Notes: generated by a model not told the origin, from the sequence alone. A DNA stretch of 64,000 nucleotides from a virus (IMGVR_UViG_3300009500_000011:104585-168584), one strand, 5' to 3'; shown: positions 9,114 through 60,082, counted from the stretch's first letter. Program-made: numbers and translations.

Positions 9114-9836
9114 TTATGTTGGGTCTTGGTCAAGAGCCCATAGGTCACTTATTAAGGAAGCATCAGCTTTAATGAGATGAGCCATATTACGAATCCATGC
9201 CGCAGATGAATGAACGGAAGCAATTGCTGTTGTTGCATCATTTAATAAATGATTTTGACTTGGGTCTAAACATGCAATGTCCCAGCGACAAGAAGAATCT
9301 CCTGAAAAGATTCCATATCCTCTTTGAGGAACGGTATCTTCTCCATCGTCATTTGTTTGAAGTGCGCGTTCACCGTGAGTTGAAACAATATAAATAGGTC
9401 CATTTATTAAAACAGATGGTTCTACAGAAACATTAAATGAACCGTTTGCTTCAATATTTTTTATTTTACAAACTCTTGCTACAATTCCGGCATGAATCCA
9501 TGCATGTGCAAAAGTATAAGGATTTGGACCCCAAGAACCTGTAGTAGTTACATCTGAACCATCCATCGTAAGAGCAGCGATTTCAACGTTTGCGCTTCCA
9601 TCACGGGGGTCAGAATTAAGGTGCCATGTTCCGTATGTCGTAACATCAGTTAAGTTGTTGTTTTTATAAATTGTGAATGCGTTTTTAAGAGTTTTCCAAT
9701 CAATTTTTGAGGGGTCGGTTACAGTTCCAAGAGAGGCGATATATTCACTTGAAAGATTGCCTGTTAAAGCAAATTCAATATGATAATCTCTCTGTCTTGT
9801 TGGTGGAGTAACGCTCCAATGACATGTTAAAATCAT
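9114..9836 (-). CDS. hypothetical protein (minus-strand island)
   Basis: 240-aa ORF, non-repetitive composition, convergent with the upstream + gene across a bidirectional hairpin. Confidence 0.4.
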   Translation of the reverse strand: MILTCHWSVTPPTRQRDYHIEFALTGNLSSEYIASLGTVTDPSKIDWKTLKNAFTIYKNNNLTDVTTYGTWHLNSDPRDGSANVEIAALTMDGSDVTTTGSWGPNPYTFAHAWIHAGIVARVCKIKNIEANGSFNVSVEPSVLINGPIYIVSTHGERALQTNDDGEDTVPQRGYGIFSGDSSCRWDIACLDPSQNHLLNDATTAIASVHSSAAWIRNMAHLIKADASLISDLWALDQDPT

Positions 9837-11146: not shown

Positions 11147-11659
11147 ATGGATTTTTTAGTTGGCGATATATTAGTTTTAAAACAAGATGCTCTTGACCTT
11201 GAAGATAAAACTGGCAAAACAATTTTATATCCCGCAGGTTCCGAAGCTGAAATTATACAAATAAAAAATGAAAATGAATATCATCTGCAATTTCCAGATG
11301 CCAAAATATGGCCTCATGACTTGGCAACTTTATTGATTTTCTTTAATCGTAAAAAAGATGGTAAAAATGTTTATACTCGCCAGGTTTCAGAGTATGGTAC
11401 GCCACCAAAAGAGCTTGCTTTTTATATACCTAGAGAAGTTGATTGGCGTAAAAACTATAGGTATACTGTCAGAATTGAAGCAGAAGATTGTGGCTTTAAA
11501 AAATTGATTTGTCCTAGTTGTTTCAATGACCTGGGAGAAAATGGCGAACCAGATAATGAAGGTTTGCAAAAATGTCAAAAATGTGGTACAATGGTTCTCC
11601 CGATAGACCCATTAACATTCAAGTATCCACATGATGACGGAAATGAACACACAACTTAA
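11147..11659 (+). CDS. hypothetical protein with C-terminal CxxC...CxxC zinc ribbon
   Basis: CPSCFNDLG...CQKCGT. Confidence 0.35.
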   Translation: MDFLVGDILVLKQDALDLEDKTGKTILYPAGSEAEIIQIKNENEYHLQFPDAKIWPHDLATLLIFFNRKKDGKNVYTRQVSEYGTPPKELAFYIPREVDWRKNYRYTVRIEAEDCGFKKLICPSCFNDLGENGEPDNEGLQKCQKCGTMVLPIDPLTFKYPHDDGNEHTT

Positions 11660-12935
11660 GAGTAATTCTCAAAAATTCTTAGAAGCAGCAAATTGGGCTC
11701 TTGTAAAAGAACGCTTTGGCGAAGATACAGGAGTTAATATTCGTCGCGCTTCTATAGATAATGTGCAAAATATTACGCTTTTCAATGGTTCAAAAGGTTT
11801 ACTTTTTGATGGATATTCGTTTCCTGAACAAGAACATCTTAAAGGCTTGATTGTTCACGAAGTATTAGGAAGCGCACATTCGGTTATAGCGGCATGTTTT
11901 CCTAAATTCTATAACTATGGCGAACCTGCTGAAAAACAAAAGCATCTTGAATACTTAAATGACGATTCTATGAGTGTGTTATTTGCTAAGAAAGAGGATG
12001 GAGTAAATATTCGTCCTTATTTCAATGCTGCAACAAATAGAGTTGAATTTGCTACGCGCGGAACCTTGCTTGTTGTTTCTGATATTGAAGAAACGTCTAA
12101 TCTTGATTATGGCGCAATGGCTCGTTCAATTGCAGAAGAAAAATATCCAATTCTTTTGGATGAGGAATTTGTAAAGAAATACTCTTGTATTTTTGAAATG
12201 ATTCATCCTGATTCCAAAATTCTTACGGATTATGGACAAAGAAAAGACCTTATTCTTCTGTCAGTATTTGATTTAGAAAATAACTGCTATGAATTTTCGC
12301 GTGAATGGGTAGCATCTTGGGCAAATATAATTGGGTTAAATTATGTTGAATATTGGTTTGACCAATATGCGCCTGTTTCTGAATTTTCTTCTTTAGTTGA
12401 AAAACTACTTAAAAAATGGAACGAAACGGATGTAGAAGGTTCTGTTGTTATATTTGTAAACTCTGAAGCAGAACCTGTATATCGTCTTAAAGTTAAAAAT
12501 GCTTATTATTTACAAATGCTTCGACTTGCAAAATTTTGCACTTTGAAGAATTTAGTCTCAATCATGGAAGAAAATAACTTTTCAAATTGGGAACAACTTC
12601 GTGCATATTTGTACGAAAGCCCTTCAATGAATGAAGAATTAGAAATGGCATATAAGGCTCATTTTGATGTATATGAAAATTGGTTAGCAAATCTTGAAAT
12701 CGAAAAACAAAATGTTTTAAAAGAATATCAAGAATTACCTTCTTTCGAATTACAAAAAGATTTTGCTTTATACATCTTAAAAGATGGCGCTTATCCATAC
12801 AATCCGCTATTCTTTGCTATTCGCAAATGGTTAGCAGAAGCCAAAAATCCTAATTTAGAACAATTCTTTGAAGAAAATGTTAAAGCAACAGTAATGTTGA
12901 AGAAAATCTATCCACTATCGGAAGTAGAGGAATAA
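11631..12935 (+). CDS. RNA ligase (T4 Rnl1-like nucleotidyltransferase)
   Basis: Motif I FAKKEDGVN (KxDG), motif IV-like DVEGSVVIF, motif V-like YRLKVK. Confidence 0.55.
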   Translation: MMTEMNTQLKSNSQKFLEAANWALVKERFGEDTGVNIRRASIDNVQNITLFNGSKGLLFDGYSFPEQEHLKGLIVHEVLGSAHSVIAACFPKFYNYGEPAEKQKHLEYLNDDSMSVLFAKKEDGVNIRPYFNAATNRVEFATRGTLLVVSDIEETSNLDYGAMARSIAEEKYPILLDEEFVKKYSCIFEMIHPDSKILTDYGQRKDLILLSVFDLENNCYEFSREWVASWANIIGLNYVEYWFDQYAPVSEFSSLVEKLLKKWNETDVEGSVVIFVNSEAEPVYRLKVKNAYYLQMLRLAKFCTLKNLVSIMEENNFSNWEQLRAYLYESPSMNEELEMAYKAHFDVYENWLANLEIEKQNVLKEYQELPSFELQKDFALYILKDGAYPYNPLFFAIRKWLAEAKNPNLEQFFEENVKATVMLKKIYPLSEVEE

Positions 12936-12936
12936 C

Positions 12937-13443
12937 ATGGGTTTATTTGATTATGTAATTTGTGATTATCCTTTACCTGATTCATATAAAGGGAGTATTA
13001 AGTTTACAACTAAAGACTTAAATTCTTTTATGAATACTTTTACTATTACTGAATCAGGTCAACTTTTAGAACACAAATTTCATTTTGAAGAAGTTCCTGA
13101 AGAAGAACGTCCTAAATTTAATACACCCGAATGGAATTCTGATAACGAAACAATTAAAACTTGGACACGCTTAATGGGTTCAAAGATTCAAGTATTTGAT
13201 GGCTTGGAACCCTACCTTTACACAGGTGCTGTTTGTTTTTACGGTTCAAATTTAGATAGTTGTAATTCGGATGGATATTATACTACAGAAAATGATGAAC
13301 CTTATGAATACAAAGAATACATTGCTTTGTTTAAAAATGGTATGTTAATTAACATTATTGAAAATAATGAAAAAGACAATGAATTTTTTACTCCAGAATG
13401 TTTTTTAACACAAAAACAGTATAAAGAAAAATATAATGAATGA
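12937..13443 (+). CDS. hypothetical protein
   Basis: Track ORF between the ligase and the Thg1-like gene. Confidence 0.4.
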   Translation: MGLFDYVICDYPLPDSYKGSIKFTTKDLNSFMNTFTITESGQLLEHKFHFEEVPEEERPKFNTPEWNSDNETIKTWTRLMGSKIQVFDGLEPYLYTGAVCFYGSNLDSCNSDGYYTTENDEPYEYKEYIALFKNGMLINIIENNEKDNEFFTPECFLTQKQYKEKYNE

Positions 13444-14197
13444 CTCGCTTGGCGACCGAATGAAAACATATTATGAAGATGTGACGCGGCATTACTTGCC
13501 TCGGCGAACTCATACAATTATTCGGTTAGATGGAAAATCTTTTCATACGTATACAAAAAAATTAGCAAGACCATTTGATGCTGGTTTGATTGAAGATATG
13601 CAAAAAACCACAATTCGACTTTGTGAGAATATTCAGGGCGTTGTTCTTGGTTATACGCAATCTGATGAAATATCTCTTGTTTTATGTGATTATAAAGAAA
13701 AAGAAACTGAATCCTTTTTTAAAGGTAATATTCAAAAAATTTGTTCAGTATCTGCAAGTATGGCTACTGCATTCTTCAATGCTTTTAGACAAGCCCGTAA
13801 TTTTGAAGGTGGTCCAGCATTTTTTGATGCTAGAGTATTTACTATTCCAGAAAAGGTAGAAGTTCTTAATTATCTTATTTGGAGACAAAAAGATGCAACA
13901 AGAAATTCTATTCAAATGGCCGCACAATCTGTTTATTCTCATAAAGAACTTAATAAAAAGAAGTGGTCTGATTTAAATGAAATGCTTTTTCAGAAAGGTA
14001 TTAATTTTAATGATTATTCTTCTTCTGAAAAACGTGGTTCTTTAATTGTGAAAGAATATTTTGAAGGGGAAGCCTATGATAAGCGTAAGCAAGAAAATGT
14101 TATAGTTACTCGGTCGCGTTGGATTGTAGAACCTGAAACACCTCTTTTTACTGCTGAAGAAAATAGAGATTTATTTGAAAGGTATTTATATAAATAA
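13436..14197 (+). CDS. Thg1-like protein (tRNA-His guanylyltransferase / 3'-5' polymerase family)
   Basis: N-terminal GDRMKTYYE...HTIIRLDGKSFHTYTKK and SDEISLV match the Thg1/TLP signature. Confidence 0.6.
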   Translation: MNDSLGDRMKTYYEDVTRHYLPRRTHTIIRLDGKSFHTYTKKLARPFDAGLIEDMQKTTIRLCENIQGVVLGYTQSDEISLVLCDYKEKETESFFKGNIQKICSVSASMATAFFNAFRQARNFEGGPAFFDARVFTIPEKVEVLNYLIWRQKDATRNSIQMAAQSVYSHKELNKKKWSDLNEMLFQKGINFNDYSSSEKRGSLIVKEYFEGEAYDKRKQENVIVTRSRWIVEPETPLFTAEENRDLFERYLYK

Positions 14198-17234: not shown

Positions 17235-17308
17235 ATTTTGAGTTGCGCTAGAATAAAGTTACTTCGTCTGTAAAACGAGGAATCCGGGTTCGAGTCCCGG
17301 TCGGAATC
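17235..17308 (+). tRNA. tRNA-like element / possible pseudo-tRNA (anticodon loop CTGTAAA = GTA)
   Basis: Acceptor ATTTTGA/TCGGAAT (with G-U pairs), anticodon stem TTCGT/ACGAG, canonical T-arm CCGGG-TTCGAGT-CCCGG. No convincing D-stem; no CCA. Confidence 0.3.
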
Positions 17309-18943: not shown

Positions 18944-18948
18944 ATCAT

Positions 18949-19020
18949 TGGAGTGGTAGCATAGAGGTAATGTACCGTTTTATCGCGAGCGGGATGAAGG
19001 TTCGAGTCCTTCCCCTCCAG
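18949..19020 (+). tRNA. tRNA-like gene with 8-nt anticodon loop (TTATCGCG) - identity unclear
   Basis: Acceptor TGGAGTG/CCCTCCA (one mismatch), D-arm GCAT-AGAGGTA-ATGT, stem CCGTT/AGCGG enclosing 8 nt, canonical T-arm GAAGG-TTCGAGT-CCTTC. Confidence 0.35.
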
Positions 19021-19040
19021 TTCTTTTTTAAAAAGAAATC

Positions 19041-23091: not shown

Positions 23092-23174
23092 GCTGGGGTG
23101 GCTCAGAGGCGACAGCGCCAGTTTTGTAAACTGGTATACAAACAACGTGGGTTCGAGTCCCACCCCCAGCCCCA
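23092..23174 (+). tRNA. tRNA-Thr-like (anticodon TGT) with 12-nt unpaired variable region
   Basis: Acceptor GCTGGGG/CCCCAGC, stem CCAGT/ACTGG, loop TTTGTAA, variable TATACAAACAAC, T-arm GTGGG-TTCGAGT-CCCAC, CCA encoded. Confidence 0.5.
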
Positions 23175-24446: not shown

Positions 24447-24935
24447 TTGAAATATTTTTTTGATACCGAATTCATAGAAAATGGAGAAACTATAGACCTA
24501 GTAAGTATAGGTATTGTTTCTGAAATTGGACGTACTTACTATGCAATTAGTAAAGAATTTGACCCTACCAAGGCTGACCCTTGGGTTATTGAAAATGTTC
24601 TAACTCTTTTAGTTAAAGATGGTAAGCCAATCGAACCTGAAAATTGGAAAAGTCGAGAACAAATTAAGAATGATATTTTAACATTTGTTGATGATGAACC
24701 TGAATTTTGGGCTTGGTACGGAGCTTATGACTGGGTATGTTTAGCACAATTGTTTGGTAAAATGGTAAATTTACCAAAACATTTTCCCATGTATGCCAGA
24801 GATATAAAATTATTATCAGAATTAAAGGGTAATCCTCCTAAGCCTCCTCAAGCAGGAAGTAAGCATAACGCTCTTGAAGATGCAAAATGGAATAGAATGT
24901 TTTATAATATGCTTATCAAGATGCCTTACGTTTGA
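24447..24935 (+). CDS. DEDDh 3'-5' exonuclease
   Basis: Exo I FFDTEF, Exo II YGAYDW, Exo III HNALEDAKW. Confidence 0.55.
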   Translation: MKYFFDTEFIENGETIDLVSIGIVSEIGRTYYAISKEFDPTKADPWVIENVLTLLVKDGKPIEPENWKSREQIKNDILTFVDDEPEFWAWYGAYDWVCLAQLFGKMVNLPKHFPMYARDIKLLSELKGNPPKPPQAGSKHNALEDAKWNRMFYNMLIKMPYV

Positions 24936-25103: not shown

Positions 25104-25188
25104 GGGACTTTGGCAGAGCGGTTATGCAACGGACTCTTAATCCGTGAGGGAAACCTCTATGTGGGTTCGACCCCCACAGGTCCCACCA
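25104..25188 (+). tRNA. type-II tRNA (15-nt variable arm) carrying a Lys-type anticodon loop CTCTTAA (CTT)
   Basis: Acceptor GGGACTT/AGGTCCC, stem ACGGA/TCCGT, variable arm GAGGGAAACCTCTAT, T-arm GTGGG-TTCGACC-CCCAC, A73-CCA. Confidence 0.5.
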
Positions 25189-25197
25189 AATAACTAT

Positions 25198-25274
25198 GGG
25201 ATAGTAGGAGAATTGGCATATCTACCACGTTTAGACCGTGGGTTCTGTGGGTTCAAGTCCCACCTATCCTACCA
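25198..25274 (+). tRNA. class-I tRNA (5-nt variable loop) carrying a Leu-type anticodon TAG
   Basis: Acceptor GGGATAG/CTATCCT, stem CCACG/CGTGG, loop TTTAGAC, T-arm GTGGG-TTCAAGT-CCCAC, A73-CCA. Confidence 0.55.
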
Positions 25275-30888: not shown

Positions 30889-31186
30889 TGATAAGTGCGA
30901 AACATGCGATGGTAAAGGTACATGGGAAGTACCCTGGGATGAAGTTGATGATGCAACCAAGGCTATGCTTGGTGGCATTGATGACTTGATAAGTAAATTT
31001 CCTGGTTCTAAATTGGGTCCATTAGTTTATAATTGTCCTGATTGTCAACAAACTGGTTCGCAAGCCGTTCGAGAACAATGGTCAATAAATCGTTTAGACC
31101 CTAAAAAACATGAGTATGTTTTTCAATGTACTGATGGTGACCCTTGTTGGGAATGTAAAGCAGAGAAAAAAGAGCATTTAAAATGA
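30878..31186 (+). CDS. zinc-ribbon protein
   Basis: CETCDG ... CPDCQ ... CWEC. Confidence 0.35.
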   Translation: MNIDDKCETCDGKGTWEVPWDEVDDATKAMLGGIDDLISKFPGSKLGPLVYNCPDCQQTGSQAVREQWSINRLDPKKHEYVFQCTDGDPCWECKAEKKEHLK

Positions 31187-32001
31187 TTGATTATACAACA
31201 AAACCGGATTTAGGAAAATTATCTGAATCAGAATTTTTTGATTTAGATAATCCGCCTTTTGATATTCAAAAACATTGTTTATATTCAGTCATATCTGGTT
31301 CAAAAGCATATGGATTAGATACGCCTACAAGCGATACTGATATTCGTGGAGTTGTATATTTACCAGAAAGAATGTTGCTTGGTTTAGGTAGATTTGAACA
31401 AATTGAAAATCAAAGCAAAGATATTTGTTATTACAGTCTACAAAAACTTTTTAATTTGGCATTAAAAAATAATGTTCATGCAATGGAAATGCTTTGGATG
31501 CCAAAAAGAACGGTTAACTTTATACATCCTTTATTTGAGCAAGTTCTAGATAATAAAAATTTATTTATGTCTAAACGCATTGCATATACTTGTGGTGGAT
31601 ATGCTTTCCAACAAGTTAAGGTTGCCTTTACAAAGATGAAAAATAAGACTGGTAGAGTTAGTTTATTAGAACAATTTGGCTATGATACTAAATTTATGAG
31701 TCATAGTATTCGTATTTATAGAATGGCCCGTGAAGCATTAGAAACAGGTTTTCTAAATGTCTATCGACCTGATAGAGAGTTTTTACTTGATGTTAAGGTT
31801 GGTAAATATAAACTTGAAGATATTGTTGTTATGGGTAAAAATTCAGAAGGTAAAGATACTTTTGTTGGTGGATTATTAGCAGAAGAATTGCGACTTTTTA
31901 ATGAAGCACTTGCAAAAACAAAATTACCAACCGACCCTCCTTTCCAAAAAATTGAAAATCTTTTAATTAAAGTTCAAAAAGAAGCTTTATCTTTTAATTA
32001 A
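31183..32001 (+). CDS. nucleotidyltransferase-fold protein (pol-beta superfamily)
   Basis: GSKAYGLDTPTSDTDIRGV fits the GS-x(9-13)-D-x-D motif. Confidence 0.4.
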   Translation: MIDYTTKPDLGKLSESEFFDLDNPPFDIQKHCLYSVISGSKAYGLDTPTSDTDIRGVVYLPERMLLGLGRFEQIENQSKDICYYSLQKLFNLALKNNVHAMEMLWMPKRTVNFIHPLFEQVLDNKNLFMSKRIAYTCGGYAFQQVKVAFTKMKNKTGRVSLLEQFGYDTKFMSHSIRIYRMAREALETGFLNVYRPDREFLLDVKVGKYKLEDIVVMGKNSEGKDTFVGGLLAEELRLFNEALAKTKLPTDPPFQKIENLLIKVQKEALSFN

Positions 32002-44933: not shown

Positions 44934-45036
44934 CTCTAATAGAGTTGAAGCTGAAGGAAACGAAGCAGGTGGTTTAAATGCCATCGGAAGCAAGTGCAAG
45001 TCTTGCCATCTCTGCCATAAAAAACTAAATAAATTT

Positions 45037-45400: not shown

Positions 45401-45519
45401 GTTCGAGTCCATTAAGTGTAGTCGGTACACAACTGTAGTTGTTCCATTCGTTTAAATTTTATTTAATCCTTGGGAATATATTTCTCAAGGATTTTTTTGT
45501 TGTCATAAAGGAAAAAAGA

Positions 45520-47205
45520 ATGAAATACAATACTAAAACAGTAAATGCTGGTCCAGGAACAAAAATGATAAATCTTGCAGGCGGAGAAGCTTTTAAAGTT
45601 GATAATCGTACTGCATTATATTTAACTTCTGCAACTTCTTTAGGTGGCGGTCAAGGAAATAAATATTATGTTTCTGCAAATCAAGAATACAAAAATATTC
45701 TTGAACTAATTGAAAAGGTTTCCGCTCAAGACCCAGAATTTATTTTCCAATTGGCTGCATATTGTCGTCAAGATTTATACCTTCGTAGTATTCCAACGGT
45801 ATTATTTATCGAAGGTATTCGTGCAATGCATAAGCAAAAAAAGGCCAATGCACCATATCCAGTAGATGCATCTAAGTATGCAAATGCTATTTTTGGTCGT
45901 GCTGATGAAATTGTTGAAGCAGTTGCATATTGGCTTGGAGTTGAAGGCCATCACAAATTGCCTTCCCCTCTTCGTAAATCTTTGACCATTGCTTTAAATT
46001 CATTTGATGAATACCGCTTGCTTAAATATAATCAAGAAGATAAGCAAGTTACATTTAAAGATATTGTTCGTCTTGTGCATCCAGAACCAAAAACTGATGT
46101 GCAAAGTGCAATTTTCAAATACTTCATCAAGGATGAAATCAGTCCAGAATTAATGCCAAAGGCAACTGCCCGCAAGGCTTTGCTTTCACGTACTCAATTT
46201 GATGAAGAAGCACAACGCTTGATGAGAGATTCATCTGCTACTTGGGAAACTGTAATTGCTAAATTCGGTTCGACTAAAGAAATTTGGGAAGCAGTTATTC
46301 CAAATATGGGATACATGGCTTTATTACGTAATCTTAATAATTTTCTTAAAAAAGAAGTAGATTTAGATTTAGTAATTCCTCGCCTTGTGAATCCGCAAGA
46401 AATTCGTAAAAGCAAGCAATTGCCTTTCCGTTTTTACACAGCAATGAAACAACTTGGTGTAGAAGATAACAATAAGAATTCTACGATGACATATTATGGA
46501 TATTCCGATTCAGTAAAAACAGCATTTGAAAAATGGCGTAATGTAAATTCTAGCGATGGAATTTCTCGTTTACGTAATGCTCTTGGTGTTGCTATGAATA
46601 TTGCAGTAGAAAATGTTCCTCACCTTTCAGGTCGTACCGTTGTTGCGGCAGACCTTTCTGGTTCTATGAGTCAACCTCTTAATAACAAATCAAATGTAAC
46701 TTATCGTGAAATCGCTTGTATTATGGCTGGTATTGCTGGTTCAATAGCACCAGATAATGTAATTTGTGGATTTGGTTGTTCATTTGCTGTTGCTAAAAAA
46801 GGCAAAGATATTCTTGAAACTGCAAATAATATTGATAAATTAAATGTTGGAATGTCAACGGATGCATGGCGTATTCTTGATTACTTGCTTACAAACAAAA
46901 TTTTTGTAGATAGAGTCATGTATTTTACAGATACACAATGTTATAATTCATATGGGGGCGCAAATTTAAACGAACTTTGGAAAAAATACAAAGTTCTTTG
47001 CCAATCAACTGGTAAAAAAGTTCCTGTTCTTTATGAAGTAAATCTTGCAGGTGGTAATACATCTAGTTTTAATTCTGAACAAAGAGTTGCTACCATTGGT
47101 GGATGGTCTGAAAGAATTTTTGATTTAATTACTACTTATGAAACTGACCCTCGTCAAGCAATAAGTAAAATTAAAGAAAAATATTCAGATTTAGTATCTG
47201 TTTAA
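45520..47205 (+). CDS. Ro60/TROVE-domain protein with C-terminal vWA/MIDAS
   Basis: Size, helical N-terminal repeats and C-terminal VVAADLSGSMS MIDAS motif as in Ro60/Rsr orthologues. Start set at ATG 45520 (AAAGGAAAAAAGA upstream). Confidence 0.5.
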   Translation: MKYNTKTVNAGPGTKMINLAGGEAFKVDNRTALYLTSATSLGGGQGNKYYVSANQEYKNILELIEKVSAQDPEFIFQLAAYCRQDLYLRSIPTVLFIEGIRAMHKQKKANAPYPVDASKYANAIFGRADEIVEAVAYWLGVEGHHKLPSPLRKSLTIALNSFDEYRLLKYNQEDKQVTFKDIVRLVHPEPKTDVQSAIFKYFIKDEISPELMPKATARKALLSRTQFDEEAQRLMRDSSATWETVIAKFGSTKEIWEAVIPNMGYMALLRNLNNFLKKEVDLDLVIPRLVNPQEIRKSKQLPFRFYTAMKQLGVEDNNKNSTMTYYGYSDSVKTAFEKWRNVNSSDGISRLRNALGVAMNIAVENVPHLSGRTVVAADLSGSMSQPLNNKSNVTYREIACIMAGIAGSIAPDNVICGFGCSFAVAKKGKDILETANNIDKLNVGMSTDAWRILDYLLTNKIFVDRVMYFTDTQCYNSYGGANLNELWKKYKVLCQSTGKKVPVLYEVNLAGGNTSSFNSEQRVATIGGWSERIFDLITTYETDPRQAISKIKEKYSDLVSV

Positions 47206-50858: not shown

Positions 50859-51162
50859 GAGTTGTTTGCATAAAATCAAGACAATCTTTACACATTAAAA
50901 TTAATTTTGGATTTTGAAAATTTTCTTCATCAATAATTTCAACAAAATTATTTTTTTCTGTCTTGCAAAGCAAACATAAATGTGGTATTCCATCATTAAC
51001 TGCCAAAAAATATAAAGAATTGGAAAATTTTTCAACAATAATAAATGGCCTCATTTGATGAACAATTTCTCCAATATTTAAAAGATATTTTTCCATTAAA
51101 TCGAATTCTTCATCGGTACTAAACCCAGCAGATGTTCCATCGGGCTTGAATTTGAATAGCAT
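50800..51162 (-). CDS. hypothetical protein (minus strand), Cys-pair containing
   Basis: 120-aa ORF with ordinary composition; convergent with and overlapping 50388..50858 by ~58 nt. Confidence 0.3.
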   Translation of the reverse strand: MLFKFKPDGTSAGFSTDEEFDLMEKYLLNIGEIVHQMRPFIIVEKFSNSLYFLAVNDGIPHLCLLCKTEKNNFVEIIDEENFQNPKLILMCKDCLDFMQTTLTKTSKDIHDEHSIRLLGS

Positions 51163-51174
51163 ATATTGTATAAT
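51146..51174 (+). promoter_or_regulatory. promoter TTGAAT-N17-TATAAT for the atypical tRNA-like gene 51187..51263
   Basis: 17-nt spacer, perfect -10. Confidence 0.4.
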
Positions 51175-51186
51175 CTCCTTATATAT

Positions 51187-51263
51187 GGCCGTATACCAGC
51201 CTAATTTCCTAAATTAGTAACTGTAGATGGACAAGGTAGGTTCGAATCCTATTGCGGCCTCCA
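51187..51263 (+). tRNA. tRNA-like gene with aberrant core (hairpin CTAAT-TTCCTAA-ATTAG = CCT anticodon-like; no canonical D-arm)
   Basis: Perfect acceptor GGCCGTA/TGCGGCC and T-arm GTAGG-TTCGAAT-CCTAT, U73-CCA, 77 nt; the interior does not fold as a cloverleaf by eye. A consensus promoter sits just upstream. Confidence 0.35.
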
Positions 51264-57443: not shown

Positions 57444-57681
57444 ACAACAATCTTTGTACAATTCTTGTAAAATTAATTTTAATACTTTAAAACAAAATGT
57501 TAAAATTTTGTTGGGTGATAATAAAAAAGTTTTAGATGCCTTACAAGTTGTTGAATTAGAACTAATTAAAGTCAATCCTTATTGTAAAATAACTTCAATT
57601 AAAAATGTTACAGAAGAAGAAAACAATTCTCCTGTTCTAGAAAAAGAGAATACTACTGATGAAAGCAAAACAAGCAATTAA
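57433..57681 (+). CDS. hypothetical protein
   Basis: Track ORF. Confidence 0.3.
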   Translation: MLGRQQSLYNSCKINFNTLKQNVKILLGDNKKVLDALQVVELELIKVNPYCKITSIKNVTEEENNSPVLEKENTTDESKTSN

Positions 57682-57853
57682 AATGCTAAAAAACATAGGA
57701 TTTGATATAGAGCGTATGGGAAAAGGTGACCATATATTATTGCGGAGTCCTGATAATAAAAGAATTGTTCTGCAAAATGGTGCATTAGAATTATCTCCAG
57801 GTTTGACAGGTAAAGTTAGAAGTCTTTTGCAAAAAGGTAAGTTAAATGAGTGA
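57659..57853 (+). CDS. HicA-like toxin-fold protein (YcfA/HicA family)
   Basis: K..IKMLKNIGF...R.GKGDHILLRSPD.KRIVLQNG...LSPGLTGKVRSLLQKGKL matches the HicA pattern including the conserved His. Confidence 0.5.
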   Translation: MKAKQAIKMLKNIGFDIERMGKGDHILLRSPDNKRIVLQNGALELSPGLTGKVRSLLQKGKLNE

Positions 57854-58106
57854 CCATTATACTTATTCCTATGATTCTCCTCCTTTTTGTTATAAATGTA
57901 AAACATTACATAATAATAATCTAATTTGTGATGTTCTTAAAGAAGAATATCTTAAAAAAAGTTTAGAACCCGAAAGATTTATAAAAGTCCACGAAGAAAA
58001 ACGCTGGATTGATTCGACTAATTTCCGAATAATAGAATATTTCAATCTTTTGCCTAAAAAAATTTATGGAAATTGGGCTAAACCAATATTGTTGACAAAA
58101 CAATAA
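57846..58106 (+). CDS. hypothetical protein (overlaps the hicA-like stop by 8 nt)
   Basis: Track ORF; no HicB signature seen. Confidence 0.3.
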   Translation: MSDHYTYSYDSPPFCYKCKTLHNNNLICDVLKEEYLKKSLEPERFIKVHEEKRWIDSTNFRIIEYFNLLPKKIYGNWAKPILLTKQ

Positions 58107-58120
58107 AATTGTGCTATTAT
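58092..58120 (+). promoter_or_regulatory. promoter TTGACA-N17-TATTAT for tRNA 58131..58213
   Basis: Ends 10 nt before the tRNA 5' end. Confidence 0.5.
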
Positions 58121-58130
58121 AAAAGTATAT

Positions 58131-58213
58131 CGGCGGGTTCCCGTAGCGGCGAACGGTCTGCTTTTACATGGCAGCATACCACATCGTGGGTTCGAGTCCC
58201 ACCCTGCCGACCA
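58131..58213 (+). tRNA. tRNA-Val-like (anticodon TAC) with ~11-nt unpaired variable region
   Basis: Acceptor CGGCGGG/CCTGCCG, stem CTGCT/GGCAG, loop TTTACAT, variable CATACCACATC, T-arm GTGGG-TTCGAGT-CCCAC, A73-CCA; a consensus promoter lies 10 nt upstream. Confidence 0.45.
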
Positions 58214-58230
58214 CTTTAGCAGAGAAACAA

Positions 58231-58560
58231 ATGGCAAAAGTAACAAAAAAATTAGAGCATTGCCCTGATTGTTATGTTAAGATAAATGAACGCCATCATA
58301 AAGGCTGTGACATTGAAAGATGTACGGTTTGTGGCGGTCAAAGACTTGTTTGCGGTTGTAAAGGTCATAAGCCTTGGAGTGCTGTTTGGACCGGATTTTG
58401 GCCCGGTGTAATTGAATGTCAAGTTTTAGGATGGTATTCAAAATTTATTCCGAATTATGGTTGGCGTCAAACTACCCAAGATGACCCAGATGGAATGGAA
58501 GATTTAAACCGATGGGTTATCTATAACATGGAAGTTCATCAGTTGACAAATCTTTCCTAA
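58231..58560 (+). CDS. Cys-rich protein
   Basis: Start moved to ATG 58231 because the track ORF's 5' part is a tRNA gene; CPDC...CTVCGG...CGCKGH. Confidence 0.35.
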   Translation: MAKVTKKLEHCPDCYVKINERHHKGCDIERCTVCGGQRLVCGCKGHKPWSAVWTGFWPGVIECQVLGWYSKFIPNYGWRQTTQDDPDGMEDLNRWVIYNMEVHQLTNLS

Positions 58561-58571
58561 TTTAGTATCAT
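58543..58571 (+). promoter_or_regulatory. promoter TTGACA-N17-TATCAT ahead of the structured leader and tRNA 58686..58776
   Basis: Exact -35, 17-nt spacer. Confidence 0.4.
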
Positions 58572-58685
58572 ATAATTGTAAGCACCAAGCGGGTAAGAGA
58601 ATGAATGTAAGAAGTTCTCTCTTCGTAGTGCAATTCCGTGGTTCTTGTCGTCTTAAACCGAACGGCGCTTTTTCGGTTAAAATAT

Positions 58686-58776
58686 CTCGGTGTGGTGTAA
58701 CTGGATAGCACAAAACGCTACGAACGTTTAGGGAGCCGCAAGGCCATTGGGGGTTCGAATCCCTCCATCGAGGCCA
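58686..58776 (+). tRNA. type-II tRNA (Ser-like body, G73) carrying an Arg-type anticodon loop CTACGAA (ACG)
   Basis: Acceptor CTCGGTG/CATCGAG, D-arm GTGT-AACTGGATA-GCAC, perfect stem AAACG/CGTTT, variable arm AGGGAGCCGCAAGGCCATT (GCC-GCAA-GGC hairpin), T-arm GGGGG-TTCGAAT-CCCTC, G73-CCA. Confidence 0.5.
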
Positions 58777-59009
58777 ATTAAAAAATTCCTTCTAGTAAAG
58801 AAGGGTAAGAGCATGAGTTAGGCGGGTAAACTGTACTATGCCAGGCCAAGGTAGTGGCAGCACAAATCTACTGTAGAGCAAGAGTCGAACAGTTTACATA
58901 AGAACACCTAGCAAACTGGGAGAGTTGAGGCCCAGGGATGCCGCCGAACATTCACTCTGTACAATTCGGCATTCAAAATTTCAAACTGCAAATTGAGTGC
59001 AGTATTTAA

Positions 59010-59294
59010 TTGAAACATTATAGATATCAAAGTCAAGAAGATGGTTACTGTCTTTCAAAAGAAGAATGGTGCTATCTTTGGTCATTAGAAGATGATTATT
59101 TAGGTCCAAATTGGACTCATGAAGATAGTTGGGAAGTTTATTTTGATGAAAGGTTGAATAACAAAAGCTTTATATCTATTGAAGATGAACAACATTCATG
59201 CAATAGATATAAAGGACAAACAATTCAACAAATAGAAGAAGAAATGATTCACTACTTTGAAAAAATTGAAGGAATGAAAAAAATTTCAAAGTAA
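59010..59294 (+). CDS. hypothetical protein
   Basis: Track ORF. Confidence 0.3.
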   Translation: MKHYRYQSQEDGYCLSKEEWCYLWSLEDDYLGPNWTHEDSWEVYFDERLNNKSFISIEDEQHSCNRYKGQTIQQIEEEMIHYFEKIEGMKKISK

Positions 59295-59297
59295 GAC

Positions 59298-59326
59298 TTG
59301 TCTTTTCCACAACAATGATATATAAT
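59298..59326 (+). promoter_or_regulatory. promoter TTGTCT-N17-TATAAT for the 27-aa peptide gene
   Basis: Perfect -10, 17-nt spacer. Confidence 0.45.
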
Positions 59327-59382
59327 GCTACAAGTGTGGATTTTCCACATAATTTGATTAAAGAAGAAAGGAACTTATCGAA

Positions 59383-59466
59383 AATGCAAACTGCTAATAA
59401 CGTTGCAATGGCCCCGGTTGTTGTCGTTCCCGCACCTCAAGGTGTGTTAGTTAGTTATGCCCGATA
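59383..59466 (+). CDS. 27-aa hydrophobic peptide
   Basis: ATG 9 nt after AAGGAA, bracketed by a consensus promoter and a strong terminator. Confidence 0.3.
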
Positions 59467-59496
59467 AGTAACCTTAAGGTCTAAAAAAGAATTTAG

Positions 59497-59525
59497 AACC
59501 CCTGGTGAAAACCGGGGGTTTTTTG
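59497..59525 (+). terminator. intrinsic terminator
   Basis: ACCCCTGG-TGAAAA-CCGGGGGT + TTTTTTG. Confidence 0.6.
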
Positions 59526-59590
59526 TATAATCGGGGGTAGGCAAGCGGTGAGCCATCTGGCCTGGACTCATTGTTATTAATCCAAATCAA

Positions 59591-60082
59591 TTGAGTATTT
59601 CTCCTTTAGAAGGAGATTATTCAAAAATGAAAACTTGTTTAAACTGCAAACAAATTAAAGACGAATCTTTATTTAGATGGAAAAATAAATCCAAGGGTTG
59701 GAAAAAAGCTAATTGTATAGAATGTGATAAAGTCTACGATAGAAAATATCATCAAAATCGACCATTAGAAAAGAAAAAAAATAAATTAATTTTAAGTAAA
59801 AAAAGAATAGACGATATAACAGAAAAAATTTGTTTACTTTTATTAAATAAAAAATGTATTGATTGTGGTCAATCTGATATTAGAGCTTTAGATTTTGACC
59901 ATCAAGAAAATAAAACTAATAATATTGGTAATCTTACTAGTATTAAATGGAGTTGGGAAAGAGTTCAAGAAGAAATCGAAAAATGTGTAGTTAGATGTGC
60001 TAATTGTCATAGAATTAAAACTCATAAAGAGAGAAAAACACGAAAATATTTATTTGGTTTAAAATATAATCTCTGGGAGTAA
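59591..60082 (+). CDS. HNH homing endonuclease (family copy 3)
   Basis: CLNCKQ...CIECDK ... DFDHQENK ... CANCHRIKTHKE. Confidence 0.6.
   Translation: MSISPLEGDYSKMKTCLNCKQIKDESLFRWKNKSKGWKKANCIECDKVYDRKYHQNRPLEKKKNKLILSKKRIDDITEKICLLLLNKKCIDCGQSDIRALDFDHQENKTNNIGNLTSIKWSWERVQEEIEKCVVRCANCHRIKTHKERKTRKYLFGLKYNLWE

Follow-up and report, generated by a model that had tools for sequence, protein, structure and literature searches.

The gene at positions 58686 to 58776 (+ strand) of the 64,000-nucleotide stretch of viral DNA analyzed here (hereafter, the window) probably encodes, as judged from its sequence, a functional phage tRNA-Arg that is charged by the host arginyl-tRNA synthetase (ArgRS). 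Class I tRNAs such as tRNA-Arg have variable loops of 4 to 5 nucleotides (nt); a long variable arm is usually regarded as a hallmark of tRNA-Ser, tRNA-Leu, and bacterial tRNA-Tyr and, for serine, as an identity element. The 91-nt tRNA appears to be built by placing a small GNRA-capped hairpin in the variable loop of an otherwise ordinary tRNA-Arg(ACG) body.

ARAGORN called a tRNA-Arg(acg) gene with exactly these bounds, 91 nt long with its CCA encoded, and gave it a regular full cloverleaf. Rfam placed positions 58686 to 58773 in the tRNA family (RF00005) with 49.4 bits (gathering score, 29; E = 1.4e-7 for the entire window), and this score is within the range of the other tRNAs in the window. 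The acceptor stem, CTCGGTG/CATCGAG, has 7 bp including one G-T pair. The D arm (58695 to 58711) is GTGT-AACTGGATA-GCAC, with the stem GTGT/GCAC and a loop in which A20 was located at 58705 from the sequence and from comparison with canonical phage tRNA-Arg(ACG) genes (L121 to L124). The anticodon arm (58713 to 58729; AAACG-CTACGAA-CGTTT) carries the anticodon ACG at 58720 to 58722 and is followed by the 19-nt variable region AGGGAGCCGCAAGGCCATT (58730 to 58748), delimited by the Rfam alignment and by a MAFFT alignment with L121 to L123. The T arm (58749 to 58765), GGGGG-TTCGAAT-CCCTC, was delimited by ARAGORN and Rfam, and the discriminator G73 (58773) immediately precedes the encoded CCA (58774 to 58776).

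The variable region represents a 15-nt insertion in the Rfam alignment and is about 15 nt longer than that of canonical relatives. With more than 10 nt and a stem-loop, it makes the molecule a type II tRNA. Its hairpin, GCC-GCAA-GGC (58735 to 58744), consists of a 3-bp stem and a GNRA tetraloop; it forms when the four cloverleaf stems are enforced, and the variable region folded in isolation reaches -4.4 kcal/mol. The unconstrained minimum free energy fold of the whole tRNA is not a cloverleaf (-28.6 versus -24.7 kcal/mol), as is common among tRNA sequences. ARAGORN, Rfam, the sequence itself, and the constrained fold therefore bear out the molecule that an earlier note on this DNA had described, with its anticodon stem AAACG/CGTTT, loop CTACGAA, anticodon ACG, 19-nt arm containing GCC-GCAA-GGC, and G73.

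The window has about 32% G+C, contains 32 tRNA genes according to ARAGORN, and carries nearly all of its genes on the + strand; it appears to be a segment of a large phage. A Pfam scan revealed genes for replication and nucleotide metabolism (primase, ribonucleotide reductase, and PhoH), a sigma factor, several metallophosphoesterases, and a set of RNA or tRNA repair genes that encode an Rnl1-type RNA ligase, a Thg1-like 3'-5' polymerase, an RlaP nucleotidyltransferase, an Rv2179c-like 3'-5' exoribonuclease, and Ro60/TROVE. RNA-repair and tRNA-related genes are interleaved with the tRNA arrays at 11631 to 12935, 13436 to 14197, 24447 to 24935, 31183 to 32001, and 45439 to 47205. Among the open reading frames (ORFs) of at least 150 amino acids (aa) in the window, the scan found neither an aminoacyl-tRNA synthetase nor TadA. 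No close phage relative was found in INPHARED, IMG/VR, or JGI metagenome contigs. Searches of the INPHARED phages gave no match for positions 57500 to 60000 (megablast), for a 1191-aa protein (tblastn), or for the 91-nt tRNA (blastn); a flotillin-based locus search in IMG/VR yielded no relative, an exact protein look-up for relatives returned only a 945-bp contig, and no metagenome contig matched a target-specific pattern that combined the D arm with a long variable region.

The body of the 91-nt tRNA is of the arginine type. Ordinary 74-nt phage tRNA-Arg(ACG) genes were recovered from viral contigs by a pattern of the D arm and CTACGAA; the D arm of the 91-nt tRNA is identical to that of the canonical genes L121 to L124, and in the alignment with L121 to L123 the variable-loop insertion is the main difference. 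The bacterial identity set of tRNA-Arg comprises A/G73, G2-C71, C3-G70, A20 (the main determinant), C35, and U/G36 (PMC9976931), and five of these six are found in the 91-nt tRNA: A20 is the A directly after G18G19, C35 and G36 belong to the anticodon ACG, and G73 and C3-G70 are present. The sixth, a minor bacterial arginine determinant, is replaced by U2-A71, a pair shared by 7 of the 70 ordinary phage tRNA-Arg compared. In a comparison set of about 1,000 parsed phage tRNAs, an A follows G18G19 in 54 of the 70 ordinary tRNA-Arg (77%), in 10 of 54 tRNA-Ser, and in 53 of 782 tRNAs (7%) of the remaining isotypes, that is, those other than tRNA-Arg, -Ser, -Leu, and -Tyr. Crude home-made isotype profiles (HMMs), built with the anticodon and the variable region removed, ranked Arg first (43.1 bits) and Met next (38.0 bits), with Ser outside the top four; because these profiles were correct for only 14 of the 32 window tRNAs (44%), the ranking gives weak support, and it is partly circular in that the Arg training set included L121 to L124, which had been retrieved by similarity to the target. 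The nearest neighbors of the whole tRNA core, a mixture of Leu, Arg, Trp, and Met tRNAs, give no guide to its isotype. Leucine or tyrosine identity was dropped in view of G73: LeuRS and TyrRS require A73, the discriminator of 91 of 92 phage tRNA-Leu and 21 of 22 phage tRNA-Tyr.

The anticodon loop CUACGAA is the canonical loop of tRNA-Arg(ACG), in which A34 is deaminated to inosine so that CGU, CGC, and CGA are read. By this established behavior, A34 of the 91-nt tRNA would likewise become inosine, and the tRNA would then read the same three codons. It is the sole tRNA for CGT, CGC, and CGA among the 32 that ARAGORN called in the window, and these codons account for half of the arginine codons of the phage (258 of 511). 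Six of the 11 arginines shared with the ribonucleotide reductase of Thermotoga maritima, including those of the LRP and RRG motifs, are encoded by CGT, CGC, or CGA, which indicates that CGN means arginine in this phage.

Expression of the 91-nt tRNA is plausible, given a promoter-like site upstream and the encoded CCA. The site is a putative sigma-70-like promoter at 58543 to 58571 (+), composed of TTGACA (58543 to 58548), a 17-nt spacer, and TATCAT (58566 to 58571), and it matches the consensus at 11 of 12 positions; a promoter-like site is also found 11 nt upstream of tRNA-Val(TAC). The earlier note had envisaged transcription from an own promoter through a structured leader. The promoter part of this proposal is plausible, but the presumed 5' leader (58578 to 58685 on the + strand, about 108 nt from the transcription start predicted by the promoter position to the 5' end of the tRNA) is no better folded than its shuffles (z = -0.12, with 78 of 200 shuffles equal or better), and the idea of a structured leader was dropped. 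Past the tRNA, a trailer at 58800 to 58960 (+) is free of ORFs, has 46 to 51% G+C compared with about 32% for the genome, and contains long-range complementary segments; a terminator-like hairpin lies at 58985 to 59003. A structured trailer RNA at 58777 to 59010 was considered and rejected, its folding being not significant (z = -1.1); Rfam gave no match in the trailer.

Long-variable-arm tRNA-Arg(ACG) genes form a recurrent class. A scan for CTACGAA, a long spacer, and a T loop in this order retrieved at least 120 loci from viral contigs; with a canonical D-loop motif added, it retrieved 52 metagenome loci but only 5 loci in 185,579 bacterial and archaeal species (one genome per species), where the pattern is thus nearly missing. 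ARAGORN, run on the scanned viral and metagenomic loci, recognized 36 distinct tRNA-Arg(ACG) whose variable region is 9 nt or longer. This region forms a hairpin of 3 bp or more in 27 of the 36 (mean 10.2 and maximum 18 for shuffled variable regions), and 21 of the 36 have a GNRA tetraloop, GAAA or GCAA (mean 0.4 and maximum 2 for the shuffles). A bias this strong toward compact GNRA hairpins speaks for constraint and against decay, and the recurrence of the design across many phage tRNA arrays suggests that it is being maintained; this class-level evidence comes from non-orthologous tRNAs. Within one subfamily, the stems show compensatory changes (TATC/GGTA, TGTC/GACA, and TATT/AATA). The discriminators of the class are mostly A, with nine G (eight besides the target), so G73 is no feature of the class.

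The designs closest to that of the target are L150 (GCC-GCAA-GGT) and L130, and the hairpin core GCCGCAAGG is found elsewhere in the data set only in the tRNA-Arg of L150. We rejected the idea that the arm had been borrowed from a class II tRNA, as the hairpin sequence is present in no tRNA-Ser, -Leu, or -Tyr of the data set. Candidate long-arm tRNA-Arg in cultured phages were also discarded, the Cellulophaga matches being adjacent ordinary tRNA-Leu and tRNA-Arg genes. Other class I isotypes in the same phage arrays have long variable regions too (for example, 9 of 33 Cys, 9 of 49 Ile, 7 of 57 Val, and 7 of 82 Lys); none were seen in 45 Ala, 49 Asp, 84 Gly, and 37 Trp tRNAs. A literature search of incomplete coverage found no description of a phage long-variable-arm tRNA-Arg.

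Most loci of the first scan, that is, of the at least 120 in viral contigs, were left uncalled by ARAGORN and share a different layout. Its 5' part consists of a 7-bp acceptor stem, TA, four nt, one nt, and a normal anticodon arm; its 3' part consists of 3 to 5 nt, four nt, a D-loop-like AACTGGA motif, 4 to 9 nt, and the T arm. This layout occurs in 57 distinct viral-contig sequences, and the loci concerned are L001 to L120 (for example, L009 at 9413 to 9459 on the - strand, L006, L018, and L057), L184 (about 1501 to 1582), and L185 (about 1494 to 1572). The sequences read as tRNAs with a split D stem, its 3' strand coming first and its 5' strand and D loop following the anticodon arm. The two four-nt segments, which make up the split stem, pair and covary: all 52 sequences form one pair, in four pair types, and 51 of 52 form the next, in three types. 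For three pairs taken together, 125 of 156 positions are paired, versus 83 ± 3.9 when the segments are permuted among sequences. RNAalifold recovered the acceptor, anticodon, and T stems of these tRNAs with many compensatory changes and predicted no D hairpin. In a structure scan for the layout, the arginine anticodons ACG, TCT, CCT, and TCG are all accompanied by GGA (corresponding to A20), whereas the isoleucine anticodons GAT and TAT are accompanied by GGT instead. Two cultured phages, Rhizobium phage RHph_I1_18 and Microbacterium phage Zooman, also have unannotated tRNAs of this layout inside their tRNA arrays, and no description of a rearranged-D-arm tRNA was found in the literature searched. 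In the T5-like Salmonella phage vB_SalS_ABTNLsp4, an unannotated tRNA-like stretch (L186, about 370 to 440) shows an acceptor stem and a T arm together with a GTAACTGGT motif; no anticodon arm is evident there.

The window contains a gene of this kind at 51187 to 51263 (+), unannotated, missed by ARAGORN, and carrying the arginine anticodon CCT. Its acceptor stem has 7 bp and its anticodon stem 5 bp, and a T arm and CCA are present, but there is no D hairpin; Rfam scored it at 27.9 bits, short of the gathering score (29), in an alignment from which the D arm is deleted. A CAG right after T8-A9 pairs with a CTG 3' of the anticodon arm, next to which stands the D-loop-like AGATGGA, and a promoter-like TTGAAT-17-TATAAT (51146 to 51174) lies 12 nt upstream. 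From these features, the gene appears to encode a tRNA whose D arm is rearranged (permuted).

Several further tRNAs of the window are structurally odd. Three more class I tRNAs are enlarged in the variable region: tRNA-Lys(CTT) (25104 to 25188, +) has a 15-nt variable region with a GAGG-GAAA-CCTC hairpin, and 11-nt variable regions are found in tRNA-Thr(TGT) (23092 to 23174, +; ATACAAACAAC) and in tRNA-Val(TAC) (58131 to 58213, +; CATACCACATC). The tRNA-Leu(TAG) at 25198 to 25274 (+) has a 5-nt variable loop and is class I-shaped; short variable loops are found in roughly half of the tRNA-Leu of the phage arrays compared. A 67-nt tRNA-Tyr(GTA)-like gene at 17242 to 17308 (+) has a mismatched acceptor stem and was unconfirmed by Rfam, and an aberrant call at 18948 to 19021 (+), with 35.2 bits in Rfam, has an 8-nt anticodon loop and an anticodon given as "atcg." At 44941 to 45014 (+), about 425 nt before the start of the Ro60/TROVE gene (45439 to 47205), a tRNA-like element was detected under permissive filters only (32.0 bits in Rfam). 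Its anticodon loop is enlarged and its T loop atypical; it may be a Y-RNA-like (YrlA-type) partner of Ro60.

[quoted passage not shown] The proposal has precedents: SerRS ignores the anticodon, and the variable arm is the main basis of serine identity (PMC9976931), and bacterial serine-type tRNAs with non-serine anticodons exist, the allo-tRNAs among them including one with the arginine anticodon GCG (PMC5389517). It rested solely on the arm and G73, however. The bacterial serine set consists of G73, C72, G2-C71, R4-Y69, C11-G24, a large variable region, and G30-C40 (PMC9976931); the 91-nt tRNA shares only G73, R4-Y69 (as G4-C69), and the presence of an arm, and it has G72, U2-A71, U11-A24, and C30-G40 in place of the other four of the seven. 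G73 itself is not serine-specific, because it occurs in 21 of 70 ordinary phage tRNA-Arg (30%) and A/G73 belongs to the arginine set (PMC9976931); nor does C11:G24 discriminate Ser from Arg among phage tRNAs. Of 54 phage tRNA-Ser, 53 carry the G2:C71 pair and 47 carry A3:T70; both pairs are found in the tRNA-Ser(GCT) that this phage encodes. The geometry of the arm is likewise unlike that of serine tRNAs: its stem has 3 bp and 4 unpaired nt follow on the 3' side, whereas the arms of phage tRNA-Ser have a 3' spacer of 0 to 2 nt in 61 of 61 cases and a stem of at least 5 bp in 42 of 61, so that neither size nor orientation is of the serine type. The arm is attached, moreover, to a body with the full set of major ArgRS determinants (A20, C35, and G36). 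Since CGN means arginine and half of the arginine codons would receive serine, those of conserved catalytic-core arginines included, a serine-charged tRNA would harm the phage itself. Sense-codon recoding is not indicated, and the evidence favors the alternative that the earlier note had also raised, a novel architecture of an arginine isoacceptor.

That the gene is decaying or nonfunctional, with the long variable region as insertion damage, is also quite improbable. Aberrant genes do occur in phage arrays, as the 67-nt tRNA-Tyr-like call and the tRNA with an 8-nt anticodon loop illustrate in this window, and the unconstrained fold of the 91-nt tRNA departs from the cloverleaf. Yet all four stems are intact, the loops are canonical, CCA is encoded, and the Rfam score is typical; a strong promoter-like site lies upstream; no other tRNA of the window serves CGT, CGC, and CGA; and the insert, a compact GNRA hairpin, follows a design seen repeatedly among the 36 tRNA-Arg(ACG), with compensatory changes in one subfamily. 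A tRNA-shaped RNA whose main role lies outside translation, for example as a decoy or sponge for a host nuclease or toxin that targets tRNA or as a substrate or guide for the RNA-repair enzymes of the phage, would suit a phage that encodes an RNA ligase, a Thg1-like enzyme, RlaP, and Ro60 and has several structurally odd tRNAs in the window. Such a role is improbable as well, given that every feature for charging and decoding is kept (anticodon loop, A20, T loop, and CCA), that the phage heavily uses CGT, CGC, and CGA, and that the sequence bears no sign of a separate function.

Compared with canonical bacterial and phage tRNA-Arg(ACG/ICG), the 91-nt tRNA has the same D loop with A20, the CUACGAA loop, A/G73, and the 7/5 acceptor/T arrangement, but its variable region has 19 nt with a GNRA hairpin instead of 4 to 5 nt. 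The class II tRNAs of the same arrays (Ser, Leu, and Tyr) resemble it in having short variable hairpins that are often GNRA-capped; GNRA loops are found in 25 of 61 tRNA-Ser and 22 of 51 tRNA-Leu and also in the tRNA-Tyr, tRNA-Leu(CAA), and tRNA-Leu(AAG) of the window. The 3-bp stem and 4-nt 3' spacer are like those of tRNA-Tyr and other long-arm class I tRNAs and not like those of tRNA-Ser, whereas the discriminator is G73 here and A73 in tRNA-Leu and tRNA-Tyr. The nev-tRNAs of nematodes have a tRNA-Leu-like body; that of the 91-nt tRNA is arginine-type, and its anticodon and predicted charging therefore agree. The nev-tRNAs, and eukaryotic noncanonical V-arm tRNAs, are similar to the phage tRNA in combining a class II shape with anticodons of class I amino acids (PMC3333845, PMC4300185); the nev-tRNAs are encoded by nematode nuclear genes and are reported to be misacylated with leucine in vitro. 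Allo-tRNAs share with the 91-nt tRNA a long variable arm, G73 (or U73), and a non-serine anticodon, including an arginine one, but they differ in their 8/4 or 9/3 acceptor/T stems, in a D arm that resembles the one of tRNA-Sec, and in their serine identity (Mukai et al. 2017; PMC5389517). The 91-nt tRNA has a 7/5 arrangement and an arginine-type D arm and lacks the serine determinants of the acceptor stem.

For a tRNA-Arg of this architecture, the host ArgRS would recognize A20, C35, G36, and G73, with C3-G70 also present. ArgRS is a class I synthetase, and enzymes of this class bind tRNA with the variable region toward the solvent, so the enzyme should accommodate the inserted hairpin of about 15 nt. 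Long variable arms are compatible with the ribosome and EF-Tu, as the class II tRNAs show. As for the hairpin itself, it is distinctly possible that it is a near-neutral, structurally constrained add-on. Perhaps, more tentatively, it alters how proteins other than ArgRS see the tRNA, such as tRNA-targeting defense nucleases and toxins or modification enzymes. The set of RNA-repair genes suggests a phage in conflict over tRNAs, which makes shielding against nucleases or toxins plausible. A specific form of this idea, which we consider somewhat unlikely, takes the hairpin as an adaptation to a phage-host tRNA conflict, yielding a tRNA that ArgRS can charge but that would be attacked poorly by tRNA-targeting defense nucleases or toxins, or by a factor with which the phage destroys the tRNAs of its host. 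The hairpin would then be one of several structural disguises of tRNA-Arg, together with the rearranged-D-arm tRNA-Arg of the window.

In phage arrays, tRNA-Arg and further class I isotypes thus repeatedly bear compact variable hairpins with GNRA caps. For annotation, isotype calls based on the length of the variable arm can err; for synthetase specificity, such tRNAs bear on how SerRS avoids a long-arm tRNA-Arg; and for tRNA engineering, the variable arm of the tRNA-Arg scaffold appears to be naturally tolerant of insertion. If the hairpin does shield the tRNA, it would help to explain how phage tRNAs escape tRNA-directed immunity.
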